DNA of 64,000 nt from Candidatus Falkowbacteria bacterium GW2011_GWF2_43_32 (GTDB lineage Bacteria > Patescibacteriota > Patescibacteriia > Patescibacteriales > UBA12465): positions 44,289 to 108,288 of the forward strand of contig LCGL01000004.1 of assembly GCA_000999715.1 (NCBI GenBank), read 5' to 3'. Below are positions 6,505-18,453 of this stretch, one piece after another. The notes under the pieces were generated by a model. The model was not told where the DNA came from and did not search any database. It was given only the letters and a program-made list of their open reading frames with translations. Positions within the stretch are counted from its first letter, which is position 1; every line of letters begins with the position of its first letter. The translations under genes and the position numbers were made by a program.

Positions 6505-8043
6505 ATGTCCAGTCACGCCAAGGATTTCATCGTGGAACAATTAAAAAAACAGATTCAAGATTTGGAATTTGATAATCAGGAACGCTCTTTCGGCAAAGTC
6601 ATCGAAGTCGGCGACGGTATCGCCAAAGTTTCCGGATTGTCGGAAGCGATGATGTCGGAAATGTTGGAATTCAAGACCGAACGGGGATCCGTTTACGGCG
6701 TGGTGTTGAATTTAAACGAGGACAGCGTCGGCGCCATCGTTTTGGGCGATTCCAGTTGGATTAAGGAAGCCGATGAAGTGATGGCGACAAAAAGAATTTT
6801 GGAGGTTCCGGTCGGCGAAGATTTGATCGGCCGGGTGGTCAATCCTTTAGGGGCGGTTTTGGACGGCAAAGAAGAATTGAAATCCGATAAACATTATCCG
6901 ATTGAAAAAATCGCTCCGGGCGTTATTACCCGCGAATCGGTGAAACAGCCGGTTCAGACCGGTATTAAGGCCGTTGATGCCATGATTCCGATCGGCCGCG
7001 GACAAAGAGAATTGATTATCGGCGATCGCCAGATCGGCAAAACCGCTATCGCCATCGATACGATTATCAATCAAGCCGGACAGAAAATGAAATGCGTTTA
7101 TGTGGCTATCGGACAAAAAGAATCCAAGGTGGCCAATATTGTGGCTAAATTGGAACAATCCGGCGCCATGAAATATACTATTGTCGTTGTCGCCGGGGCG
7201 AGCGATCCGGCTTCCATGTTATATATCGCGCCTTATGCCGGGACGGCGATGGCGGAATACTTTTTGGATCAAGGCGAGGACGTGCTGGTCGTTTATGATG
7301 ATTTGTCCAAGCACGCCGTATCTTATCGCGAGATTTCTTTATTGTTGAAACGTCCGCCGGGCCGCGAAGCGTATCCGGGCGACGTCTTTTATTTGCATTC
7401 CCGTTTATTGGAAAGATCTTGCAAGCTGAACAAAGATTTTGGCGGCGGGTCAATCACTTCCTTGCCGATTATCGAAACGCAAGCCGGCGATGTGGCCGCT
7501 TATATTCCGACCAATGTCATTTCTATCACCGACGGACAGATTTATTTGGAACCGGATTTGTTTTATCAAGGCAATCGTCCGGCCGTCAATGTCGGTATTT
7601 CCGTTTCCCGTGTCGGTTCGGCCGCTCAGATCAAGGCGATGAAGAAAGTGGCCGGAAAAATTAAGTTGGAAGCGGCGCAGTATAGAGAATTGGCGGCTTT
7701 TGCCCAGTTCGGTTCCGATTTGGATGAAGCGACCAAAAAGCAATTGGAAAGAGGCAAGCGCTTATTTGAAATTTTCAAACAAGATCAGTACGCTCCGGTG
7801 GCCGTTGAAGACCAGGTGTTGATTTATTACGCGGTTTCCAACGGGTATATGGATGACGTGCCGGTAGAACGGATTAAAGATTTTGAACTCGCTCTTTTGA
7901 ATTATGCTCATGACAATGCCCGGGCGACTTTGGACAGGGTAAAAAAGAGCGGTCAGTTGGAAGAAAAAGATGAAAGCGATTTCCAGCAAGCCATTCAAGG
8001 CTGTAAAGATATTTTAGATTATTTGATCAAGAAAAATGATTAA
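6505..8043 (+). CDS. atpA: F0F1 ATP synthase subunit alpha
   Basis: Walker [10 protein letters not shown]. Alpha-subunit signature motifs. 512 aa. Confidence 0.95.
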
Positions 8044-10401: not shown

Positions 10402-10848
10402 TTGTTTATGTCGCAAAAGATTATCACATTTGAAATCGTCACGCCGGAAAGAGTTGTTTTCCGAGAGGAAATCAGACAGATAACCGTGCCGACGACCAGC
10501 GGCGAAGTCACTATTTTGCCGGAGCATATTCCTTTGGTTTCCATCTTGAAGCCGGGCGTGTTGGAAATCAAAAAGTCCGACGATACCTGGGAAATTATTT
10601 CAGTATCCGGCGGATTTTTGGAGGTGCTGCGGGACAAAATTGTTATTTTAGCGGATACGGCGGAAAGAGCGGTGGAATTGGATGAACAGAGAATTGAGGA
10701 GGCTAGAGCCAGAGCCGAGGAAGCCAAGAAGAATGCGATTAATGTTGATCAAATGGAATTTGCCCGTATTGCCGCTCAATTGGAGAAAGAATTGGCGCGG
10801 ACGCGCGCTTTGAATCGTTGGCGGAAGATTAAAGGTTTTTCCAAGTAA
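10402..10848 (+). CDS. atpC: F0F1 ATP synthase subunit epsilon
   Basis: N-terminal beta-sandwich (IVTPERVVF..) plus C-terminal helical hairpin. Last gene of the operon. Confidence 0.85.
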   Translation: MFMSQKIITFEIVTPERVVFREEIRQITVPTTSGEVTILPEHIPLVSILKPGVLEIKKSDDTWEIISVSGGFLEVLRDKIVILADTAERAVELDEQRIEEARARAEEAKKNAINVDQMEFARIAAQLEKELARTRALNRWRKIKGFSK

Positions 10849-10906: not shown

Positions 10907-11183
10907 GTATTTGGAATCGGATTTTGATTTACGGGATTTACCAAGGATTTTTGATATTTTTAAGGCGGAAACTCGTCATTATTCATACTTTGTTGTTTAT
11001 TGGTCCTGTTGCATAAGCGAATAAAAGGAGATAAAATAAGATTATCCGAGTATTGACGCTTGATTCGAGAATTACGCGATATATTCGTATAATAGTCAAT
11101 AATTTGTATATATTGCGTATTTATGACGTATAAAAATGAGTTAGCTGAAATTTTGTCTGCCTAATCAATAATCCAATATTAAT

Positions 11184-11630
11184 ATGCCTGAAAAAGAACG
11201 ATTTAAACCGTACGCCGCCGCCTATCTCGTCTTAATAAAAGATGGGCAAGTTTTGCTCATGAAAAGAGCCAACACTGGCTATCAGGATGGAAATTACGGG
11301 TTAGTATCTGGCCATTTTGATGGCGGAGAAACAGCAAAACAATGTATAATTCGTGAATCAAGGGAGGAGGCTGGAATTACTGTTTTTCCGGAAGATCTTG
11401 AAGTTGTTCATGTTGTGCATCGTTTTAGACCGGCTAGGGAATATTTTGATATTTATCTTCGTGCAGAAAAATGGTCTGGTGAAATAAAAAACATGGAACA
11501 AGATAAATGTGATGAGTTTGGGTGGTTTAAAATTGACGATCTTCCGGAAAATGCGATTCCCGAATTAAAACTTGCCCTTGAAAATATTAGAAACAACGTG
11601 CATTATGGAGAGCTTGGTTGGGCGGCTTAG
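11184..11630 (+). CDS. Nudix hydrolase (island cassette 1)
   Basis: Nudix box GHFDGGETAKQCIIRESREEAGI (Gx5Ex7REUxEExGU). Confidence 0.85.
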   Translation: MPEKERFKPYAAAYLVLIKDGQVLLMKRANTGYQDGNYGLVSGHFDGGETAKQCIIRESREEAGITVFPEDLEVVHVVHRFRPAREYFDIYLRAEKWSGEIKNMEQDKCDEFGWFKIDDLPENAIPELKLALENIRNNVHYGELGWAA

Positions 11631-11664
11631 TGATATTAAAAATGTCGGCAGACAAAGCATCAGA

Positions 11665-11760
11665 TAACACGGTATATACAAAATTTTCTTTCGCTTCGCT
11701 TCAAAAAACTTCGTATGATACCGATACGTTGTACGCCATACACTTCGGCGCGCGGGTTAA
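11665..11760. repeat. Island intergenic repeat: imperfect palindrome with arms CAGATAACACGGTATATAC ... GTATGATACCGATACGTTGTAC around a CTTTCGCTTCGCTTC-AAAAAACTTC box
   Basis: The reverse complement of the right arm matches the left arm at most positions. The central box recurs at 13540-13560 and 16860-16875. Confidence 0.55.
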
Positions 11761-11774
11761 ATAAAGTTCACGAT

Positions 11775-12236
11775 ATGAACATTGAGGATTTGAAAAATAC
11801 AGTCAAAGATATAGTCGCCAAGGCTGATATTTTGAAAAGTAAAATTGTAAAAGAGCCAGTTCCAGTAAATTACGCATGTATTTTCTGCCAAAGTAAGGAA
11901 GAATATACGTCGTTTCTTGAAACAACAAAGCAAATCGGAACCGTAGTCCAAGAAACAAAAGCTGGCCCTGTATTTCAAATTGCTTCTTTGCCCACGATTG
12001 CAGGGAATTTGCAGCTACTTAAGATACGCAAGCCTGATCCAACACGGCCTGAACGTGGAGACGCTGATTTTACTCTCTTAAACTATGAAGAATTTAAAAA
12101 AGAGCATCTTTCACAACCAGGGTTTAGTCTCATTCAAAAGGAGCAACTCGAAATGATAGAGTATATGGAGCCAGATAGTTCTATTAGAGTGTATTTTTCA
12201 AATCCTCCATTAGATAAACAGTTGGGGATTATTTAA
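11775..12236 (+). CDS. Hypothetical protein (island cassette 2)
   Basis: ORF with no recognisable motif. Start placed at MNIEDL. The track ORF begins at 11715 but that extension runs through the intergenic repeat. Confidence 0.5.
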   Translation: MNIEDLKNTVKDIVAKADILKSKIVKEPVPVNYACIFCQSKEEYTSFLETTKQIGTVVQETKAGPVFQIASLPTIAGNLQLLKIRKPDPTRPERGDADFTLLNYEEFKKEHLSQPGFSLIQKEQLEMIEYMEPDSSIRVYFSNPPLDKQLGII

Positions 12237-12243
12237 GAGGCGC

Positions 12244-12290
12244 CTCGTGTACAGCGCACAACACCGGATATCCGATTCGTGAGCTAAGTA
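12244..12290. repeat. Island intergenic repeat copy (CACAACACCGGATATCCG box)
   Basis: Shares the AACAC-N3-ATATCCG core with copies at 13349, 16435 and 16915. Confidence 0.5.
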
Positions 12291-12302
12291 AAATTATTTT
12301 TT

Positions 12303-12761
12303 ATGCCCGACCACCAAAATAAACTGATCGCTGAAACTTCTTCCGAATTGTCTGCCGTGCTCAAGTTGTTACGCAGACATAGAGCTGATATTAAAAATAG
12401 CTATAAAGAAAAAAGGGGTGAGCGTCAGATATTAAGCCGTGAAGAGAGACGAGTAATACTAAATAAAACAGCTCGGCGCTGTCATATCTGTGGCGGTAAA
12501 ATTGAAGGAAACAAATTTGACGCTGATCATGTTATGGCGCATAGCAGCGGCGGCAAACATAACATTGATAATTATTTACCAGCTCATTCATTGTGCAATA
12601 ACTATCGATGGGATTATCTTGCAGAAGAGTTTCAGCTTATATTAAAAATAGGGGTTTGGTGCAGAACATTGATTGAGCATAATAAAACAACATTAGACCA
12701 AAAGATTGCCAAGAGTTTCATCGAATATGAAAAGAGTAGGTTAAAAAGAAGAAAAAAATAA
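12303..12761 (+). CDS. HNH endonuclease domain protein (island cassette 3)
   Basis: CHICGGK...DADHVMAHSSGG...NIDNY..HSLCNNYR: CxxC, DH, N and H of the HNH/His-Me finger. Confidence 0.8.
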   Translation: MPDHQNKLIAETSSELSAVLKLLRRHRADIKNSYKEKRGERQILSREERRVILNKTARRCHICGGKIEGNKFDADHVMAHSSGGKHNIDNYLPAHSLCNNYRWDYLAEEFQLILKIGVWCRTLIEHNKTTLDQKIAKSFIEYEKSRLKRRKK

Positions 12762-12779
12762 TTTTACTTATCTCGCTCA

Positions 12780-12895
12780 TTCAAATTGCTTGTCCGCTTA
12801 GGCGTTGGGTAGCGCTCCATTCCACTACGCGCTACAATTATACCGCCACGCGAACTGCGCAACTTCGAATATCCGCAAACGTTAGATGAAATAAT
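12780..12895. repeat. Island intergenic repeat copy (GTAGCGC..GCGCTAC inner palindrome; GAATATCCGCAAACGTTAGAT right arm)
   Basis: Contains the TTATCTCGCT and CACTACGCGCTAC boxes shared with 16870-16900. The right arm ends in GTTAGAT, a perfect GTTRRRY match. Confidence 0.5.
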
Positions 12896-12907
12896 AATCC
12901 ACCTAAT

Positions 12908-13327
12908 ATGAATAAAGAAACCAGTTTTAAAAAAATCTTGTATTCTAAATTGAATGCGAGACAACAAGAAAATTATAATTACCAAAAAGCGTCGGCAATT
13001 CTAGCTGACTATGGATTCAACACGCTTCGACTTTCGGATGACTGGCAGGGGGCTGATTTCATCGCAATACATATTAATGGTAAAGATTTTTTAAAAGTAC
13101 AACTTAAGGGTCGCCTCACATTTGAAAAAAAGTATATTGGTAGAGATATTTGGATTTGCTTTTCTTATCAAGACAACTGGTTTCTTTATCCGCACGATAT
13201 GCTACTTCAAATATTTGGAGATAAAATGAATTTCATCAATACGAAATCATGGACTGAAAAGGGTGGGTATAGCTGGAATCATTTAAATAAAAATCAAATT
13301 TTAGTTATCTCCAAATATAAGATTTAA
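12908..13327 (+). CDS. Hypothetical protein, possible PD-(D/E)xK nuclease fold (island cassette 4)
   Basis: GADFIAIHINGKDFLKVQLKG resembles a D...(E/Q)xK catalytic core. The assignment is weak. Confidence 0.45.
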   Translation: MNKETSFKKILYSKLNARQQENYNYQKASAILADYGFNTLRLSDDWQGADFIAIHINGKDFLKVQLKGRLTFEKKYIGRDIWICFSYQDNWFLYPHDMLLQIFGDKMNFINTKSWTEKGGYSWNHLNKNQILVISKYKI

Positions 13328-13344
13328 AGCCAGTGGATTATTAC

Positions 13345-13448
13345 ATCAGCTAACACGACATATCCGCAAGGGCGAAAGCCACATTTTGCCACTCTATTAA
13401 AAAAAATAAGGATGTGGCGAAACGTCGGATATGCCGTAACGTTATTTG
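13345..13448. repeat. Island intergenic repeat: nested imperfect palindrome (attC-like architecture)
   Basis: Outer arms CTAACACGACATATCCG and CGGATATGCCGTAACGTTAT are reverse complements with a few mismatches. Inner arms AGCCACAT and ATGTGGCG flank an A-rich centre. Confidence 0.6.
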
Positions 13449-13525
13449 AAATATTCCTTTTTTTTGGCTATCGTTCAATTGTTGTAAAAAATTTTAAAAT
13501 TTCTTTTTTATTAATTAAAGAGGGG

Positions 13526-13580
13526 TATATAGTGTTTTCTCCGCTACGCTACAAAAACTTCTTTTATCCCTGATGTTCTG
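13526..13580. repeat. Island intergenic repeat copy in reverse orientation (GGGTATATAGTGTT + CTCCGCTACGCTAC-AAAAACTTC + TTTTATCCCTGATGT)
   Basis: Reverse complement of the ACATCAGG...AACAC..TATATAC box, with the same central box as 11692-11725. Confidence 0.5.
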
Positions 13581-13585
13581 CAAAA

Positions 13586-14065
13586 TTGAAACTTTTACAA
13601 CTTTTCTTTTTTAATATGAAACAGACTTATTCTATCGGAGCATTTGCGATTATCCTTGATGACCAAGATCGTGTTTTGCTTTGTCATAGAAATGATTACG
13701 ATCTTTGGAATCTCCCTGGCGGAGGAGTGGAATTTAATGAGGCGCCGTGGGAATGCGTCGTTCGTGAAGTTAAGGAGGAAATCGGCCTTGATGTTGAAGT
13801 TGAGCGTCTTGCTGGCGTGTACAGTAAGCGCAACCAAGATGAGTTAGTTTTTTCTTTTGTTTGTAGGGTTGTTGGTGGAAAAATGACGCTCACAAATGAA
13901 GCCGACCAAATTGAGTATTTCCCAATCGAGGAGATTCCAAAGAATACGTCGCCTAAGCAAAGTGAGAGAATAAAGGATGTTCTTGCCGATAAAGGCAAAA
14001 CGCTAGCTATGAGAGTTCAAGAAGGTCCGTCATCAATAAGTTTGATAAAGGAGGGAAAGTTGTAA
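13586..14065 (+). CDS. Nudix hydrolase (island cassette 5)
   Basis: Nudix box GGGVEFNEAPWECVVREVKEEIGL. Alternative start at 13616. Confidence 0.8.
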   Translation: MKLLQLFFFNMKQTYSIGAFAIILDDQDRVLLCHRNDYDLWNLPGGGVEFNEAPWECVVREVKEEIGLDVEVERLAGVYSKRNQDELVFSFVCRVVGGKMTLTNEADQIEYFPIEEIPKNTSPKQSERIKDVLADKGKTLAMRVQEGPSSISLIKEGKL

Positions 14066-14130
14066 AAAATTTCAGTATCGCATACTCGGATATGTTATGT
14101 GAAATAAAGTTTTATTTTTAACTATAGTCT

Positions 14131-14544
14131 ATGGCTTATTTCAATAAAATCGGTTTGCTGTATCTTAATGACGATCAGTCAAAGTTTTTAGTGTGTGAAA
14201 AAGATAATTTTACTTCTGATTTCATTATGCCCGGCGGGCAAGTGGATGATGGCGAGAATAATGAAGAATGCCTCGTACGTGAAATTAAAGAAGAGCTCGA
14301 TGTAGATATGGATAAGACAAGCCTCATATTTATCAAGGAGTATGTAGATGTGGCGGCCGGTGACCCGACAAAAGACGTTTCTATAAAGTTGTACGAAGGT
14401 AAAATTATTGGCGAGCCTAAACCGTCTGCTGAAATAATCAAGTTTCACTGGGTTGGTAAGGACGACTTGTTTCATCCGCGACTTTCCCCGATTGTCAAGA
14501 ATAGAATTTTGCCTGATCTTATCGCAAAAAAAATACTAAAATAA
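14131..14544 (+). CDS. Nudix hydrolase (island cassette 6)
   Basis: Nudix box PGGQVDDGENNEECLVREIKEELDV. Confidence 0.8.
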   Translation: MAYFNKIGLLYLNDDQSKFLVCEKDNFTSDFIMPGGQVDDGENNEECLVREIKEELDVDMDKTSLIFIKEYVDVAAGDPTKDVSIKLYEGKIIGEPKPSAEIIKFHWVGKDDLFHPRLSPIVKNRILPDLIAKKILK

Positions 14545-14552
14545 AATTTTAC

Positions 14553-14578
14553 ATCGCAGAACACGGTATGGCTAATTA
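14553..14578. repeat. Island intergenic repeat, short copy (ACATCGCAGAACACGGTATGGCTAAT)
   Basis: Matches the ACATCAG-N-TAACACGGYATAT box. Lies 9 nt upstream of the next start codon. Confidence 0.5.
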
Positions 14579-14586
14579 CGACCTTT

Positions 14587-15207
14587 ATGCAAATACCAGC
14601 CAATATTTCGCTAAAACAAGAAGGGCAATATTGTATTCATTGTTTTTCGCAAAAAGTCGAAAAAACTGATCGGGATGGCTTAACATATTATCATTGTCAT
14701 TCGTGCGGCCAGATTGCAGAAAGAAGCTTGGTTATCGATAATAGTATTGTTTGGTGGATAGATAAAAAAACCAATGAGTATTGGCATGAGAGTGTGGGTA
14801 TTTTTGTTTTTAATTTTGAAAATAAAGCTCTTTTTTTCGAAAGGACCATTTATCCTTTCGCCTTTACTATTCCGGCAGGGCATCTTGACGTCGGAGAAAT
14901 TGCAGACGTCGCCGTAAAGCGAGAGTTGAAAGAAGAAACAAAAATTGAATCTGATAATGTTAAACTTTTTTCGACAGAAGATGTGAGCGGAGACAAATGT
15001 CGTCGCGGAGCCGATCATCATAAATGGCATCTTTATGTAGCTCAAATTGAAAATATCGGTAACATCAAAATAAACGACGAAGGAATAAAGCCCGTTTGGC
15101 TCACTTTTGATGAGGCGTTGGGAAAAAAATTGGTGTATCCGGTCCGATATTTTATTGAAAAATACGGAGAAAAACTGTTGAAATCGGCGCAAATAGTAGA
15201 AATATAA
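14587..15207 (+). CDS. Nudix hydrolase with N-terminal zinc ribbon (island cassette 7)
   Basis: CIHC...CHSCG zinc ribbon followed by Nudix box PAGHLDVGEIADVAVKRELKEETKI. This resembles the NudC-type domain order. Confidence 0.8.
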   Translation: MQIPANISLKQEGQYCIHCFSQKVEKTDRDGLTYYHCHSCGQIAERSLVIDNSIVWWIDKKTNEYWHESVGIFVFNFENKALFFERTIYPFAFTIPAGHLDVGEIADVAVKRELKEETKIESDNVKLFSTEDVSGDKCRRGADHHKWHLYVAQIENIGNIKINDEGIKPVWLTFDEALGKKLVYPVRYFIEKYGEKLLKSAQIVEI

Positions 15208-15288
15208 GAGGAAAATTGTTTGTACCAAAAAATTAAAAAAGGAGTTTTAGGCTCGAGCATTGACGCTCTTATATTTTCTGACCTTAAT

Positions 15289-15343
15289 TTGTTCCGATTT
15301 CTTTAATATGGTATACTGTAAATAATCAGCTAAACCATATTAA
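15289..15343 (+). promoter_or_regulatory. Candidate promoter (TTGTTC-17-TGgTATACT, extended -10) overlapped by a perfect 10-bp inverted repeat TTAATATGGT/ACCATATTAA, upstream of the fic gene
   Basis: -35 at 15289-15294. TG-extended -10 at 15309-15317. Inverted-repeat arms at 15303-15312 and 15334-15343 with a 21-nt spacer. Confidence 0.45.
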
Positions 15344-15352
15344 ATATTTTCT

Positions 15353-16318
15353 ATGACATATCTACCATCTATCATAAAAAATCGTCTGGAAGAAAAATTG
15401 TCTAAACTTAACAAACTTCGTCCCCTGCCCAAATCAGCGGTACAAAAACTTCGTGAAAAATTCCAGATAGAGATGACCTTCAATTCAAACGCCATAGAGG
15501 GCAACTCTTTAACTTTAAAAGAGACCTTTTTGGTTATTAATGAAGGCATAACTGTAAAGGGGAAACCCTTGAAAGACCACCTGGAAGCCAAAGATCATCA
15601 CGCCGCTTTGGAATATTTATACGAGTTAATAGATAAAGACAAAAGACACACTATTTCGGAAATGCTTATACGAAATTTGCATAAAATTATTATACAGGAA
15701 ACCGATAAGGATTGGGCCGGCCGATACAGAAATGCCAATGTAACTATAGGGGGAGCAAAACACACGCCGCCAGATGCGTTGCAAGCGCCACAAAAGATGC
15801 GAGATTTAATCAGTTGGTTGAATTTACAAAAAGGCAAGACTAATATCGTTGAATTGGCCGCCTTATTACATCACAAATTAGTGCATATCCATCCCTTTTT
15901 TGACGGCAACGGCAGAACGGCACGACTCACAATGAATTTACTGCTTATGCAGGCGGGCTATCCGTTGGTTATTATTATGAAAAATGACCGCAAGAAATAT
16001 TATGATGTATTGGATAAAGCGGATAGCGGTAAACTCGAACCTCTAATAAAATTTATTGCTCAATCTATAGAGCGCTCACTTGATATTTATCTAAAAACTT
16101 TGACTCCCTCAACCACCAAGCAAGAAAAATTTGTATCGCTTGCTGAAATATCCAAGACTATTAATTGTTCTGCCAAATACTTAAATCTGCTCGCCAGACA
16201 AGGAAAACTGGAAGCATACAAAGAAGGCAGGGATTGGTTGACATCGAAAGAAGCTGTTGAACGATATTTTAAAAACCGAACAAGACAAAGAAAAAGTTCA
16301 AAAAAGAAAGTTATATAG
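15353..16318 (+). CDS. Fic/Doc-family protein (AMP-transferase-type motif) with C-terminal excisionase/MerR-like HTH (island cassette 8)
   Basis: Canonical Fic motif HIHPFFDGNGRTARL. C-terminal LAEISKTINCSAKYLNLLARQGKLEAYKEGRDWLTSKEAVERYF matches the HTH_17/excisionase-type DNA-binding pattern. Confidence 0.85.
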   Translation: MTYLPSIIKNRLEEKLSKLNKLRPLPKSAVQKLREKFQIEMTFNSNAIEGNSLTLKETFLVINEGITVKGKPLKDHLEAKDHHAALEYLYELIDKDKRHTISEMLIRNLHKIIIQETDKDWAGRYRNANVTIGGAKHTPPDALQAPQKMRDLISWLNLQKGKTNIVELAALLHHKLVHIHPFFDGNGRTARLTMNLLLMQAGYPLVIIMKNDRKKYYDVLDKADSGKLEPLIKFIAQSIERSLDIYLKTLTPSTTKQEKFVSLAEISKTINCSAKYLNLLARQGKLEAYKEGRDWLTSKEAVERYFKNRTRQRKSSKKKVI

Positions 16319-16429
16319 GAGTTTTGGTCCTGGGGCATTTTTCCCCAGCTCATCTGCTCCTACGCCCAGACAAAAATAAAATTTGTTCATTAAGAAAAGT
16401 ATTTGACTATCGTCGGAAAAAAGAAAAGC

Positions 16430-16512
16430 ATACATCATATAACACGGCATATCCGGTTACGGCGTTTATACAAAAGCCGTAATCAGGCATGCCGAAACGT
16501 TATGCGCCGCCA
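16430..16512. repeat. Island intergenic repeat: nested imperfect palindrome (attC-like architecture)
   Basis: ATATAACACGGCATATCCGG | TTACGGCG-TTTATACAAAA-GCCGTAA | TCAGGCATGCCGAAACGTTATGC. Outer and inner arms are each reverse-complementary pairs. The right end GTTATGC lies 60 nt before the next ATG. Confidence 0.6.
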
Positions 16513-16568
16513 AAAGGATGCACTTGGCTTGCGAATATTTATAAACAAGAATAATAAACAACAACATT

Positions 16569-16835
16569 ATGGAAAATAATCATTTCAAAGATGCGGTTAA
16601 ATCACACAAACTGCTTGCGCAAGAAAGAACCATTCTTGCCAATGAGCGTAATACTCTCGCGTATATAAGAACGGGGTTTTCTTCATTTGTTCTCGGTATT
16701 GCAGTCATTAAATTATTTGAGAACGACGGTTTTTTGCTATATGCTGGATGGATAGCTGTCGTGATGGGAATATTATTTATTATTCTGGGGCTAGTTTATT
16801 ATCCAATACGGAAAAAGAAGATTAAGTCATATTAG
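16569..16835 (+). CDS. DUF202/YidH-family small membrane protein (island cassette 9)
   Basis: TILANERNTLAYIRTG motif typical of DUF202, followed by two TM helices. Confidence 0.7.
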   Translation: MENNHFKDAVKSHKLLAQERTILANERNTLAYIRTGFSSFVLGIAVIKLFENDGFLLYAGWIAVVMGILFIILGLVYYPIRKKKIKSY

Positions 16836-16845
16836 ATTGTGTCCT

Positions 16846-16945
16846 CCTGAAACTCACTCCGCTTCGCTCCGACTACGCCACGCTTTTATCTCGCTGCGTT
16901 ACGCTTCAGTCGAGTCGTATAACAAGGCATATCCCGGACAAGAAC
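16846..16945. repeat. Island intergenic repeat copy (CACTCCGCTTCGCTCCGACTACGCCACGC + TTTTATCTCGCTGCG + GTATAACAAGGCATATCCCGG)
   Basis: Combines all three recurring boxes of the family. Confidence 0.55.
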
Positions 16946-17008
16946 TACCAAACAAGGGGTCGAGTAAGAATTGAAACATTCACTAGCAGTTAATTAATTA
17001 AAATTATT

Positions 17009-17332
17009 ATGAAATTAGGAATAATTATCAGTCAAATAAATCCGGAAACAAATTGGAACGCTTTGCGTTTAGCGAATTTTGCTCTCAAACAAGGCGACGA
17101 AGTTAAAATTTTTCTCATTGGCGAAGGCGTAGAGTATGAAACGGGCAGTTCGGAAAAATTTAACCTCCAAGAACAAATAGCGGAATTTTTAAAATCTGAA
17201 AATGCTAAAATTTTGGCGTGCGGCACTTGTTTAAAATCGAGAAATCAAGAAGCGACCGATAGCTGCCCGCTGAGCACCATGAAAGATCTATATGCGCTCG
17301 TACAAGAAAGCGATAAAATTTTAACTTTTTAA
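17009..17332 (+). CDS. DsrE/DsrF/TusD-like protein
   Basis: 107 aa, fold and length typical of the DsrE/DsrF-like family (conserved Cys in ACGTCLKS). Confidence 0.55.
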   Translation: MKLGIIISQINPETNWNALRLANFALKQGDEVKIFLIGEGVEYETGSSEKFNLQEQIAEFLKSENAKILACGTCLKSRNQEATDSCPLSTMKDLYALVQESDKILTF

Positions 17333-17344
17333 TGAAATAATTTT

Positions 17345-17563
17345 ATGATGTATTATAATTTTGCGCCTTTTGGCTGGATTTTCATGATTTTTTTCTGGGT
17401 TTTGGCGATTGCCGGAATCATTGTTTTGATAAAATGGCTAGTCGGCCAAAATAAGACTGAAAGCGGAAAAAATAATATCGCCTTAGATATTCTCAAAGAG
17501 AGATATGCAAAAGGCGATATTAATAAAAAAGAGTTTGGAGAAAAAAAGAGAGATTTGGAATAA
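17345..17563 (+). CDS. SHOCT-domain small membrane protein
   Basis: One TM helix then [25 protein letters not shown], the SHOCT (short C-terminal) domain pattern. Confidence 0.6.
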
Positions 17564-17616: not shown

Positions 17617-18453
17617 TTAAAATCTCAGCCAGATCATCACGATTAAGGCCAAAGCCATCCGATACCAGCCGAAAAAAGTGAAATTATGTTTTTGGATGAA
17701 ATTCAAGAAGAAGCGGATGCTGATAATGGCCGTAATGAAGGACATAACGAAGCCGATGGCCCAGACTGTCAAATCTTGGCCGACTAACAAGCCGAGCGTC
17801 GCTCGGCTTTTATATAAATCCAGGCCGGTGGCGGCTATCATGGTGGGGATGGCTAACAAAAAAGAAAATTCTACAATATTTTTACGGCCGATGCCGAGGG
17901 CCAATCCGCCGATGATGGTGGCGGCGGACCGGGAAACGCCCGGAATAATCGCCAAAGCTTGAAAAAAGCCGATGCCGGCGGCTTGTTTATAAGAGACATT
18001 CATTTCCAGTCCCCGTCCCTTGTCTTCCTTTTCTTTTTCGTTATTTTCTTCCTCGGCCGATAATATTTCGGCTGTTTGTTTTCGGGAATAATATTTTTCA
18101 AAAATAATCAGAACTAAGCCGCCGACGAAGAGCGAGCCGGCGATAACGTAATTATTGTCCAGCAGATAATTTTTGACGATTTTATAAAATATCAAACCGA
18201 TTAACGCGGTCGGCAAAAAGGCGGCGCCGATTTTGCCGAACAGTTCCCAAGAGTGCCAAATTTTTTTCCAATACAAAACCACCACCGCCAGAATCGCTCC
18301 GAGCTGGATGGAGATCGTGAAGGTTTTGAAAAACTCGGAAGAAGGGAGTCTGAGCCATTCTCCGGCCAAAATCAAATGAGCCGTGGAAGAAATCGGCAGA
18401 AATTCGCTTAAACCCTCTATCAGGCCCAAAATCAAACCATGAAATACAGTCAT
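17617..18453 (-). CDS. uppP: Undecaprenyl-diphosphate phosphatase
   Basis: N-terminus GLILGLIEGLSEFLPISSTAHLIL and PGVSRSAATIIGG motif of the BacA/UppP family. Eight TM segments. Confidence 0.85.
   Translation of the reverse strand: MTVFHGLILGLIEGLSEFLPISSTAHLILAGEWLRLPSSEFFKTFTISIQLGAILAVVVLYWKKIWHSWELFGKIGAAFLPTALIGLIFYKIVKNYLLDNNYVIAGSLFVGGLVLIIFEKYYSRKQTAEILSAEEENNEKEKEDKGRGLEMNVSYKQAAGIGFFQALAIIPGVSRSAATIIGGLALGIGRKNIVEFSFLLAIPTMIAATGLDLYKSRATLGLLVGQDLTVWAIGFVMSFITAIISIRFFLNFIQKHNFTFFGWYRMALALIVMIWLRF

Follow-up and report, generated by a model that had tools for sequence, protein, structure and literature searches.

Integrons are defined by an integrase, IntI, whose additional domain is held to be essential for the recombination of folded attC sites. 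The part of the IntegronFinder 2 survey considered here, which dealt with complete genomes in RefSeq, lists no candidate phyla among the integron hosts, and the archaeal integrons reported to date encode IntI proteins that carry the additional domain. In a recent study, 97% of the contigs bearing an "integron-type" recombinase had no attC site detectable by IntegronFinder. The simple recombinases of candidate phyla have been placed in a Xer-related 'Cand' subgroup that may compensate for Xer function (PMC8138268). No description of integrons or attC sites in Patescibacteria, the candidate phyla radiation (CPR), was found in the literature searched, and the box sequence described below gave no relevant match in papers or in the supplements of one of them. 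The present account concerns an array of repeated boxes in a stretch of 64,000 nucleotides (nt), hereafter the window, from the metagenome-assembled genome (MAG) of Candidatus Falkowbacteria GW2011_GWF2_43_32, a member of Patescibacteria. These boxes are very probably the two arms (R''-L'' and L'-R') and the internal modules of attC-like folded sites in an integron-type platform that has since lost its recombinase.

Repeated boxes in a chromosomal island

The boxes lie in a chromosomal island (11139-17563) between atpC (10402-10848, + strand) and uppP (17617-18453, - strand). The island has a G+C content of 37.2%, against 45% on either side, and contains 11 small open reading frames (ORFs), every one on the + strand, which encode four Nudix hydrolases, an HNH protein, a Fic protein with a helix-turn-helix (HTH) domain, DUF202, DsrE and SHOCT proteins and two proteins of unknown function. 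A 16-mer of the main box, TAACACGGCATATCCG, matched the window five times when up to three mismatches were allowed (0.44 expected), always on the + strand and always within 11665-16935. For the 5' and the 3' arm, separate nhmmer profiles were constructed from 53 foreign elements only, and in the 64 kb window their matches were confined to the island (11657-16937) and to the + strand. The 5' arm profile matched at 11658 (E = 1.5e-5), 13343 (2.8e-4), 16432 (5.5e-10) and 16918 (0.49), and the 3' arm profile at 11707 (7.7e-3), 12861 (1.3e-3), 13421 (2.9e-4), 14077 (0.033) and 16489 (4e-4). A strict scan of the island for RYYYAAC and GTTRRRY was uninformative, the matches falling mainly within genes.

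The first-pass annotation of this DNA had described a main box, with copies in both orientations, and two companion boxes at gene junctions, and had read them as freely combining parts of a mobile or recombinogenic repeat rather than a promoter. Its observation was partly confirmed and its interpretation partly supported. The main box is real by the counts and profile matches above; the copies reported at 11665, 13349 and 16435 are true 5' arms and that at 12262 is a true variant 5' arm, with 84% identity across 50 nt to the foreign locus L063 (L numbers denote such loci throughout). Three spacers of the island (11657-11737, 13343-13452 and 16432-16508) fold as imperfect hairpins, and the supposed copies in reverse complement therefore represent the 3' arms of those elements; those at 12868 and 13420 accordingly stand as parts of the element, but not as independent inverted copies. 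The copy at 14553 is a truncated 5' arm, which has CATCGCAGAACA in common with the full site of L083 before the two diverge, and that at 16915 is a weak remnant only. No copy exists at 13530, a position that falls within a separate conserved leader module. The 7-mer ATATCCG, put forward as the feature that repeats most, is not enriched when taken alone (14 matches, 10.4 expected). Of the companion boxes, CGCTWCGCTMC has three matches, all in the island, a count not above chance (2.8 expected), yet it is genuine as an internal module because it is conserved in foreign elements; TTTTATCYC has nine matches scattered across the whole window and is therefore no specific box.

That the boxes mark the gene junctions of an island, and that they are no promoter but a repeat of mobile or recombinogenic kind, was borne out. 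A motif common at non-junction positions, which the annotation had named as the mark of a generic repeat, was not observed within the 64 kb window, where the profile matches are limited to the island. The annotation had also proposed checking the distance of the boxes from start and stop codons: the 5' arm begins a median of 19 nt past the stop codon, and the site therefore belongs to the 3' end of its cassette. The notion of free modules in both orientations did not survive, since the boxes together make up one hairpin site, as its two arms and its interior, and that site is always oriented with the genes. The repeat and the island had thus been recognised, but the integron-type organisation, comprising an attI-like head, attC-like sites and cassettes, had been missed.

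Anatomy and distribution of the hairpin sites

Exact matches to a degenerate 23-nt form of the box, RCATCANNTAACACGRYATATMC, were found in 69 stretches of species-representative genomes, where an estimated four or so would be expected; most of these stretches derive from Patescibacteria MAGs. In approximately 55 of 70 box matches, the box forms the 5' arm of a hairpin ending in …CGTATATGCCGAAACGTTAnnnGAAAT. The consensus element, ACATCA-NN-TAAC-A-CGGCATATACGG … modular interior … CGTATATGCCG-AAAC-GTTA-NNN-GAAAT, spans 70-190 nt (measured lengths 69-193 nt, median 122, n = 72). Its imperfect hairpins have the layout of attC sites, ..TAAC-A-CGGCATATACG … CGTATATGCCG-AAAC-GTTAnnnGAAAT, and the CGCT-rich box constitutes the loop of a hairpin inside the element. 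Arm-only alignments were used because the interior is modular. Alignment of 54 full-length elements with MAFFT followed by RNAalifold recovered the L helix alone.

Across the 72 elements, 90.7% of cells in the 12-bp L helix are paired and seven pairs exhibit compensatory changes, values attained by none of 500 shuffles, and 97.6% of cells in the TAAC/GTTA core are paired. The L box of the L083 site is wholly different yet still complementary (TCGAGTATGAG / CTCATACTCGA). Judged from these alignments, the pairing structure is under selection. Mismatches within the L box are biased 21 to 6 towards A·C on the top strand, equivalent to G·T on the bottom strand, which points to folding of the bottom strand, the one that canonical attC sites use, and speaks against a sense-strand RNA. 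The unpaired spacer is asymmetric (A versus AAAC), its additional bases lying on the R'-L' arm, and a bulged L-box base is found in a subfamily that includes the first site of the window. R' begins with GTT in 64 of the 72 elements. All 17 loci with at least three strong arm matches have them on one strand.

Other site classes, such as those at L047:5917-6250 and L152:9600-9920, are GC-rich; the features held in common are the R-box logic and a …GTTnnnnGAAAT end, and their L boxes include GTGGAGCTTTGCG / CGCAAAGCTCCAC. Narrow profiles miss these classes and array sizes are consequently underestimated. The RpoC protein of L026, a locus labelled as Gammaproteobacteria, exhibited 61% identity across 1095 amino acids (aa) to that of L020, a Patescibacteria MAG, and several of the non-CPR labels among the 69 loci may be errors of binning or labelling. 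As such labels look unreliable, at least for L026, no spread across phyla is claimed.

Boundary signature and exchange of cassettes

Neighbouring sites obey a boundary rule, as a crossover at G|TT would produce: the three variable bases 3' of GTTA in one site complement the three bases 5' of TAAC in the next. Perfect complementarity was found in 13 of 34 adjacent pairs, or 16 once register slips of 1 nt were corrected, where 3.7 were expected and the maximum in 10,000 shuffles was 10. The R'' and R' boxes of one and the same element match at the frequency of chance (7 of 72, 5.8 expected). In L036, L037, L054, L055 and L047 the rule also holds between the attI-like site and the attC-like site that comes first. 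Within the window, R'' of the second site (GCGCACAAC, 12254) is complementary at eight of nine positions to the preceding R' (GTTGTACGC, 11728), and the other two testable pairs match at two of the three variable bases.

Whole cassettes were found to recur between platforms. The first cassettes of L054 and L089 are 99.3% identical over 900 nt, from the attI crossover to R', in platforms with recombinases that are 57% identical; the second cassette of L036 and the first of L084 are 95.7% identical over 1250 nt, the respective recombinases being 58% identical. Positions 14101-14570 of the window, the sixth cassette and the third to encode a Nudix hydrolase, exhibited 89.4% identity (megablast) to the first cassette of L083, which adjoins its attI-like site and a recombinase gene, whereas the window has no recombinase. 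The homology of first cassettes common to two platforms stops within 7-14 nt of the G of the crossover. The Fic cassette of the window likewise recurs, with 86% aa identity to L065:6835-7788 and 83% to L032:3-734. On these comparisons the cassettes appear to be independently mobile units.

Two contigs of a single MAG, nzgw353 (L009:1-130 and L040:1557-1889), contain the same site and diverge after R', so that the assembly forks at a recombination site. L040 also carries a 180-nt cassette without an ORF, present as a tandem duplicate directly 3' of the attI-like site.

The attI-like head and the associated recombinase

The first cassette of the window is immediately preceded by an attI-like site (11070-11151, + strand) with two TTCGYATAA motifs and the core ATGACGTATAA-AAATGAG-TTAGCTGAAAT. 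An 87-nt profile of 29 foreign attI-like sites yielded one significant match in the window, at this position (E = 9e-8, 28.4 bits), and a short attI profile gave E = 0.018 at the head. The crossover would lie between G11138 and T11139. Foreign attI-like sites have the core A[CT]TTCGYATAA-(7 nt)-TTAnnnGAAAT in addition to two TTCGYATAA motifs, and are situated 88-170 nt upstream of the start codon of a divergent recombinase gene. A promoter-like sequence at 11065-11093, TCGAGA-17-TATAAT (10/12), overlaps the start of the attI-like region of the window and reads into the array; it could serve in the role of the integron Pc promoter.

The commonest protein encoded beside the box-bearing loci is a tyrosine recombinase of approximately 270 aa, present in 12 of the 69 and both upstream and divergent in 11 of the 12. 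The reverse test took as its starting point metagenome homologues of the recombinase that were 50% identical or more and had upstream sequence of 1 kb or longer. Arm matches were found in 11 of these 16 loci and an attI-like site in 13, at -88 to -170; array features were always upstream and on the opposite strand, and none was downstream. The attI-like site also occurs on two long CPR contigs, from Wolfebacteria and Pacebacteria. On the latter (L155), a Y1 transposase (PF01797) gene at 6547-7218 lies about 3 kb from the recombinase gene and attI-like site, and the platform apparently has a leader module without any cassette gene on the array strand.

Ten recombinases were scored against NCBIfam models. 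The integron integrase model TIGR02249 gave 152-226 bits, always in two stretches (185-226 bits for nine close family members; cutoff 265), and the XerA model NF040815 gave 193-234 bits (cutoff 220); the XerC and XerD models scored lower. The recombinase aligned to VchIntIA (2A3V) in two pieces, residues 4-176 to 5-177 and 200-273 to 244-317, leaving 23 residues where IntI4 has 66. The IntI-specific domain is therefore absent, with about 43 residues fewer. The best match to a solved structure was XerA (4A8E; 173.7 bits). Homologues at E <= 1e-40 form more than 6,100 clusters, the best 120 of which are 266-298 aa long, nearly all 270-273 aa; among these 120 the database names are XerD or "tyrosine-type recombinase/integrase", never integron integrase.

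A possible remnant of the recombinase gene, RLKNIKNPW* (the last nine codons and stop), is located at 10938-10967 on the - strand, upstream of the attI-like site and divergent from it, as expected of both strand and position. Six-frame translation of the window gave no other match to the C-terminal motif L[KR][NRA]I[KRA][SN]P[LW], and blastp-short against recombinase C-termini (..LKNIKSPL*) gave E values of approximately 0.007-0.009 in a small database. A search of the 335-nt spacer with a recombinase hidden Markov model found nothing beyond the nine-codon C-terminus.

Proposed mechanism and alternative explanations

The platform of the window comprises the attI-like site followed by about ten single-gene cassettes on one strand, each of which would originally have been closed by an imperfect hairpin of 70-190 nt, corresponding to the unit TTAnnnGA…ORF…TCnnnTAAC-L''-loop-L'-…G. 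A cassette would leave as a circle, and a simple tyrosine recombinase would re-insert this circle by cutting at G|TT, either in the attI-like site or in another one. On one folded strand, probably the bottom, the L and R boxes would form two recombinase-binding arms flanking the unpaired spacer, and the short recombinase would perform strand exchange at G|TT, as occurs in integrons and in the integration of CTXphi by XerCD. An attI-type site, the structure of attC sites and the boundary rule, three hallmarks of the integron, were each found. It is conceivable, and offered here tentatively, that the array represents a widespread integron-like system of the CPR in which a plain Xer/XerA-like recombinase without the IntI domain acts on a dif-like attI beside its own gene. 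This recombinase may be the only Xer-type enzyme of the cell, a Xer/dif-type locus doubling as a platform for gene capture.

Several observations weigh against an integron-type platform worked by this recombinase. A pattern derived from the window served to ascertain the 69 genome loci and fixes the sequence of the 5' arm. Strict consensus sequences are rare, with GTTRRRY in 15 of 72 R' boxes and RYYYAAC in 13 of 72 R'' boxes; the canonical layout of extrahelical bases could not be matched to the asymmetric spacer, and 18 of the 34 adjacent pairs lack perfect complementarity. The associated recombinases lack the defining feature of IntI. No gene for a recombinase of this type was found in the 64 kb window by tblastn, and activity at this locus can therefore not be claimed; the sequence at 10938-10967, a matter of only nine codons, is suggestive only of a leftover from a deleted recombinase gene. 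No circular cassette or excision was observed.

Two alternatives retain the recombination sites and alter the enzyme or the substrate. An ordinary integron relic would have canonical attC sites and a true IntI encoded elsewhere, the short recombinases being bystanders such as housekeeping Xer proteins. The layout, orientation, length range and AAC/GTT cores of the sites all suit attC, but this explanation is judged very unlikely, since the short recombinase stands at a fixed distance and orientation from the attI-like site in all 28 platforms examined, the GTTAnnn of that site matches the first cassette, none of the loci yielded an IntI with the insertion, and the best 120 of the more than 6,100 homologue clusters all fall within the size range given above. 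Integrase-less arrays are nevertheless common, archaeal arrays having yielded 6 IntI per 539 attC (PMC9668308). Alternatively, the arms could be duplex dif-like sites that recombine without folding, in the manner of pdif modules or integrative mobile elements exploiting Xer (IMEX), with the platform as the organism's own Xer/dif locus, at which elements accumulate. The core of the attI-like site is indeed dif-shaped, with 11-nt inverted arms (A[CT]TTCGYATAA / TTAnnnGAAAT) about a 7-nt centre, and the 3' arm of each site linearly resembles it. The right arm of the core is identical at 10 of 11 positions to the XerD arm of Escherichia coli, and in single-recombinase Xer systems (XerS, XerH) dif lies beside the recombinase gene, both of which count in favour of duplex recombination. 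So do the structural match to XerA and the presumption that simple CPR recombinases substitute for Xer (PMC8138268). A purely double-stranded mode is less likely because L'' and L' covary, complementarity being kept while the sequence changes, as fits a folded strand; moreover, the 5' arm would be left without a role if the 3' arms alone recombined as direct repeats. No switch in GC skew was detected at the island, where skew is positive throughout the window, nor consistently over ten platforms, a weak test given such short stretches; the site is therefore not demonstrably at a replication terminus, which also counts against a Xer/dif locus. On balance, duplex recombination is considered very unlikely.

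Neither of two explanations that dispense with site-specific recombination is regarded as credible to any appreciable degree. Palindromes of the kind known as miniature inverted-repeat transposable elements (MITE) or repetitive extragenic palindromes (REP), spread by a transposase and tolerated between genes, would resemble the present elements in being imperfect, 70-190 nt long, located at junctions and modular in their interior, superficially like BOX, ERIC or Correia repeats, and the Y1 transposase gene lies 3 kb from the L155 platform. The elements are, however, restricted in the window to one island in 64 kb and to one strand, and in related platforms they are linked to a recombinase; their R boxes follow a rule of neighbours and not of their own ends, the exchanged unit is a gene plus its site and ends at G|TT, and no recurrent transposase occurs among the neighbouring protein families, so that such an origin is exceedingly improbable. 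A transcribed regulatory element common to small genes, such as a terminator, attenuator or small RNA, would be in keeping with conserved intergenic hairpins and with the promoter-like and anti-Shine-Dalgarno-like sequences of the leader and trailer modules. A scan against Rfam, a collection without an attC family, returned nothing relevant, scans for terminator- and promoter-like sites revealed no enrichment, the sites lack T tracts, and the mismatch spectrum favours a fold of the antisense strand. Regulation would also leave the boundary signature and the recombinase linkage unexplained, and the chance that it accounts for the array is minimal.

Individual sites of the array

The eight sites assigned to the integron-type platform, all on the + strand, comprise three complete copies, one short variant and four that are truncated or decayed. 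Because the recombinase is gone and five of the eight sites have been truncated, have decayed or are atypical, we read the array as a sedentary, decaying relic resembling the attC-site clusters that have no integron integrase (known as CALIN). By analogy it would fall within the working definition of a CALIN, having at least two sites, here attC-like, and no integrase nearby.

Site 1 (11657-11737) is complete, with the 5' arm at 11657-11679, the 3' arm at 11713-11737 and R' GTTG at 11728. It folds into an imperfect hairpin with one bulged G, and its inner hairpin (11680-11712) bears the box CGCTTCGCTTC, is approximately 84% identical to L042 and resembles that of L013. Site 2 (12254-12298) is the short variant, in which R'' GCGCACAAC is followed by the palindrome GGATATCC and by ATTCGTGAGCTAAGTAAAAT; it has 84-87% identity to L063:395-444 and L029:199-243, and the variant is also present in L005. 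Site 3 (12768-12892) has lost its 5' arm and retains the interior …CAAATTGC…TTATACCGCC… together with a 3' arm at 12861-12892 (E = 1.3e-3) and R' GTTA at 12881; over positions 12836-12893 its identity to long-form sites in L003, L006 and L017 is 81-83%. Site 4 (13343-13452) is complete and matched by both arm profiles (5' arm 13343-13366, 3' arm 13426-13452, R' GTTA at 13441). Its hairpin gave z scores of -3.1 (bottom strand) and -2.7 (top strand), and it is 84% identical to L035:534-644 over 112 nt.

Two remnants flank the sixth cassette. Site 5 (14076-14105) consists of a 3' arm alone (profile E = 0.033; R' GTTA at 14094), and the L083 homology of the following cassette begins 7 nt beyond the G of this GTTA. 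Site 6 (14551-14571) consists of a 5' arm alone (ACATCGCAGAACACGGTATGG), the rest having been deleted; its R'' is that of the complete L083 site (ACATCGCAGAACATCGAGTATGAGG … CTCATACTCGAAAACGTTAGTTGAAAT) and also that of the 5' arm of L022. Site 7 (16432-16508) is complete and the best copy, with the 5' arm at 16432-16456 (E = 5.5e-10), the 3' arm at 16484-16508 (E = 4e-4), R' GTTA at 16499 and a fold z score of -3.1. Site 8 (16857-16937) is decayed and has no stable fold; a CGCT-rich box occupies 16857-16909, and what is left of the 5' arm, GTCGTATAACAAGGCATATCCCGG (16914-16937), matches the 16-mer with two mismatches and the 5' arm profile weakly (E = 0.49). In five of the six junctions that retain a 5' arm, the site starts 8-27 nt past the stop codon; in the sixth it starts 114 nt past the Fic stop codon, a trailer module lying in between.

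Leader and trailer modules

The leader module of the window forms the 5' end of cassette 5 (13441-13585, + strand) and consists of an A/T-rich stretch, AGAGGGG and the hairpin GTGTTTTC-TCCGCTACGCTAC-AAAAAC at 13532-13558; the boxes previously placed at 13530 and 13540 both lie inside it. Positions 13418-13558 are 81-83% identical to L003, L009 and L036, and 13418-13508 are 81% identical to L017, in each case directly past R'. In many arrays, including L009:111-240, L003, L036, L035, L053 and L019, R' is followed by a leader about 115-130 nt long, while L017 and L010 have its A/T-rich half only. The leader combines GAAATATTCCTTTTCTTTTT and a small GC hairpin with a promoter-like A/T-rich stretch, AGAGGGG and the hairpin GTGTTTTC-TCCGCTAYGCTAC-GAAAAC, the loop sequence of which reappears within some attC-like sites.

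A decayed trailer module (16321-16431, + strand), with one long and one small hairpin and an A/T-rich stretch, separates the stop codon of the Fic gene from the 5' arm of site 7. It clusters with 18 foreign trailers and is 70-78% identical to those of L020, L009 and L030. Trailers of approximately 115 nt are present in 19 of 80 elements, for example at L020:1574-1723 and L030:773-922. The stem of their long hairpin covaries and its C-rich loop is conserved (TTCACCCCTAACCCCTC), the loop sequence ACCCCTCT being complementary to AGAGGGG of the leader. The A/T-rich half of the trailer is the reverse complement of that of the leader, so that the inverted repeat can extend about 80 nt past R'' and R'.

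Cassette genes

Cassette 1 encodes a Nudix hydrolase (11184-11630; Pfam NUDIX, E = 1.6e-17). The ORF of cassette 2 (11715-12236) has no Pfam or NCBIfam match and its product is of unknown function, with 173 aa from the first ATG; the ATG at 11776, 3' of site 1, is the more likely start. Cassette 3 encodes a protein with an HNH endonuclease domain (12303-12761; Pfam HNH, E = 5.9e-7), which also gave a partial, weak match to the HNH region of the IscB model (27.7 bits, cutoff 175) that probably reflects merely the common HNH fold. A 139-aa product of cassette 4 (12908-13327), again of unknown function, has no Pfam or NCBIfam match. Nudix hydrolases are encoded by cassette 5 (13586-14065; Pfam NUDIX, E = 2e-22) and cassette 6 (14131-14544; Pfam NUDIX), and by the ORF at 14587-15207, whose product has an N-terminal zinc-ribbon-like segment (Pfam NUDIX, E = 9e-17). 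No recombination site was detected after the last of these, positions 15208-15352 having no arm profile matches. The Fic and HTH cassette ORF (15353-16318; Pfam Fic) and the DUF202 membrane protein cassette ORF (16569-16835; Pfam DUF202, E = 1.7e-13) follow. The final ORFs of the island, DsrE-like (17009-17332) and SHOCT (17345-17563), were assigned by Pfam; no site occurs after them and the array stops before uppP. All of these ORFs share the + strand of the sites.

Four of the first seven cassette ORFs (11184-15207) thus encode Nudix proteins, and Nudix ORFs were also observed in the foreign loci L015, L022, L029, L047, L050 and L064, a recurrence that suggests a functionally biased cassette pool. 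The GroEL, AtpD and Fic proteins of the window correspond exactly to KKT13039.1, KKT13021.1 and KKT13031.1. A look-up with a protein of the window returned solely the same genome from other samples, in an identical arrangement.

Relation to described systems

The island, low in GC and made up of Nudix, HNH, Fic and further small genes, would, as an integron-type platform minus its recombinase, be explained as a set of captured cassettes. A short recombinase labelled XerD in databases, from a very large family found in tiny CPR genomes, is here linked to the full genetic logic of the integron, which includes the attI-like site, the hairpin sites, the boundary rule and the exchange of cassettes. 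If that recombinase is active, it would provide CPR bacteria with a dedicated route of gene gain. The system would explain why such arrays have escaped surveys based on the integrase. Should the tentative proposal of a plain Xer-type enzyme be true, the system would stand, as a living intermediate, between integrons and Xer/IMEX recombination, the IntI insertion would be dispensable for the recombination of folded sites, and a testable model for the origin of integrons from Xer-type systems would be available.

Among described elements using Xer-type recombinases, IMEX of the CTXphi type resemble the present system in that two inverted recombinase sites 20-120 nt apart can fold into one duplex with an unpaired centre, a Xer-like recombinase is employed and elements accumulate in tandem at one chromosomal site. 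They differ in that the present units are single genes and not phages, the target lies beside the recombinase gene and not at a demonstrated terminus, and the array is composed of many units with a common family of sites. The pdif modules of Acinetobacter plasmids are likewise bounded by Xer-type half-sites that travel with them, and in XerS/difSL, XerH/difH and archaeal XerA a dif-like site adjoins the recombinase gene, XerA being the nearest structure. Unlike the sites of pdif modules and single-recombinase systems, the present arms covary, as on a folded strand, and form a chromosomal array of uniform orientation; no evidence was obtained here for any role in dimer resolution.

The likeness to integrons is the more extensive. 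A recombinase gene diverges from a simple attI-type site and is followed, across that site, by same-strand arrays of mainly single-ORF cassettes, every one of them closed by an imperfect inverted repeat. This repeat contains …AAC/GTT… cores and a paired L box, its spacer is unpaired and its tip variable, and crossover at G|TT makes R' match the R'' of the next site. Sites within a family are similar, as are the repeats of Vibrio cholerae, identical cassettes occur across platforms, a bottom-strand fold appears to be favoured and decayed arrays without an integrase exist. In contrast to integrons, the present recombinase lacks about 43 of the 66 residues of the additional-domain region of VchIntIA and scores below the TIGR02249 cutoff, the strict R-box consensus is present in only about 20% of sites, and many lineages of the CPR conserve the arm sequence. 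Two TTCGYATAA motifs and a dif-like core are present in the attI-like site, leader and trailer modules of about 115 nt lengthen the inverted repeat outward in many cassettes, and the hosts are CPR/Patescibacteria. We class it as a new integron variant, and the array in the window as a decayed member that lacks an integrase.

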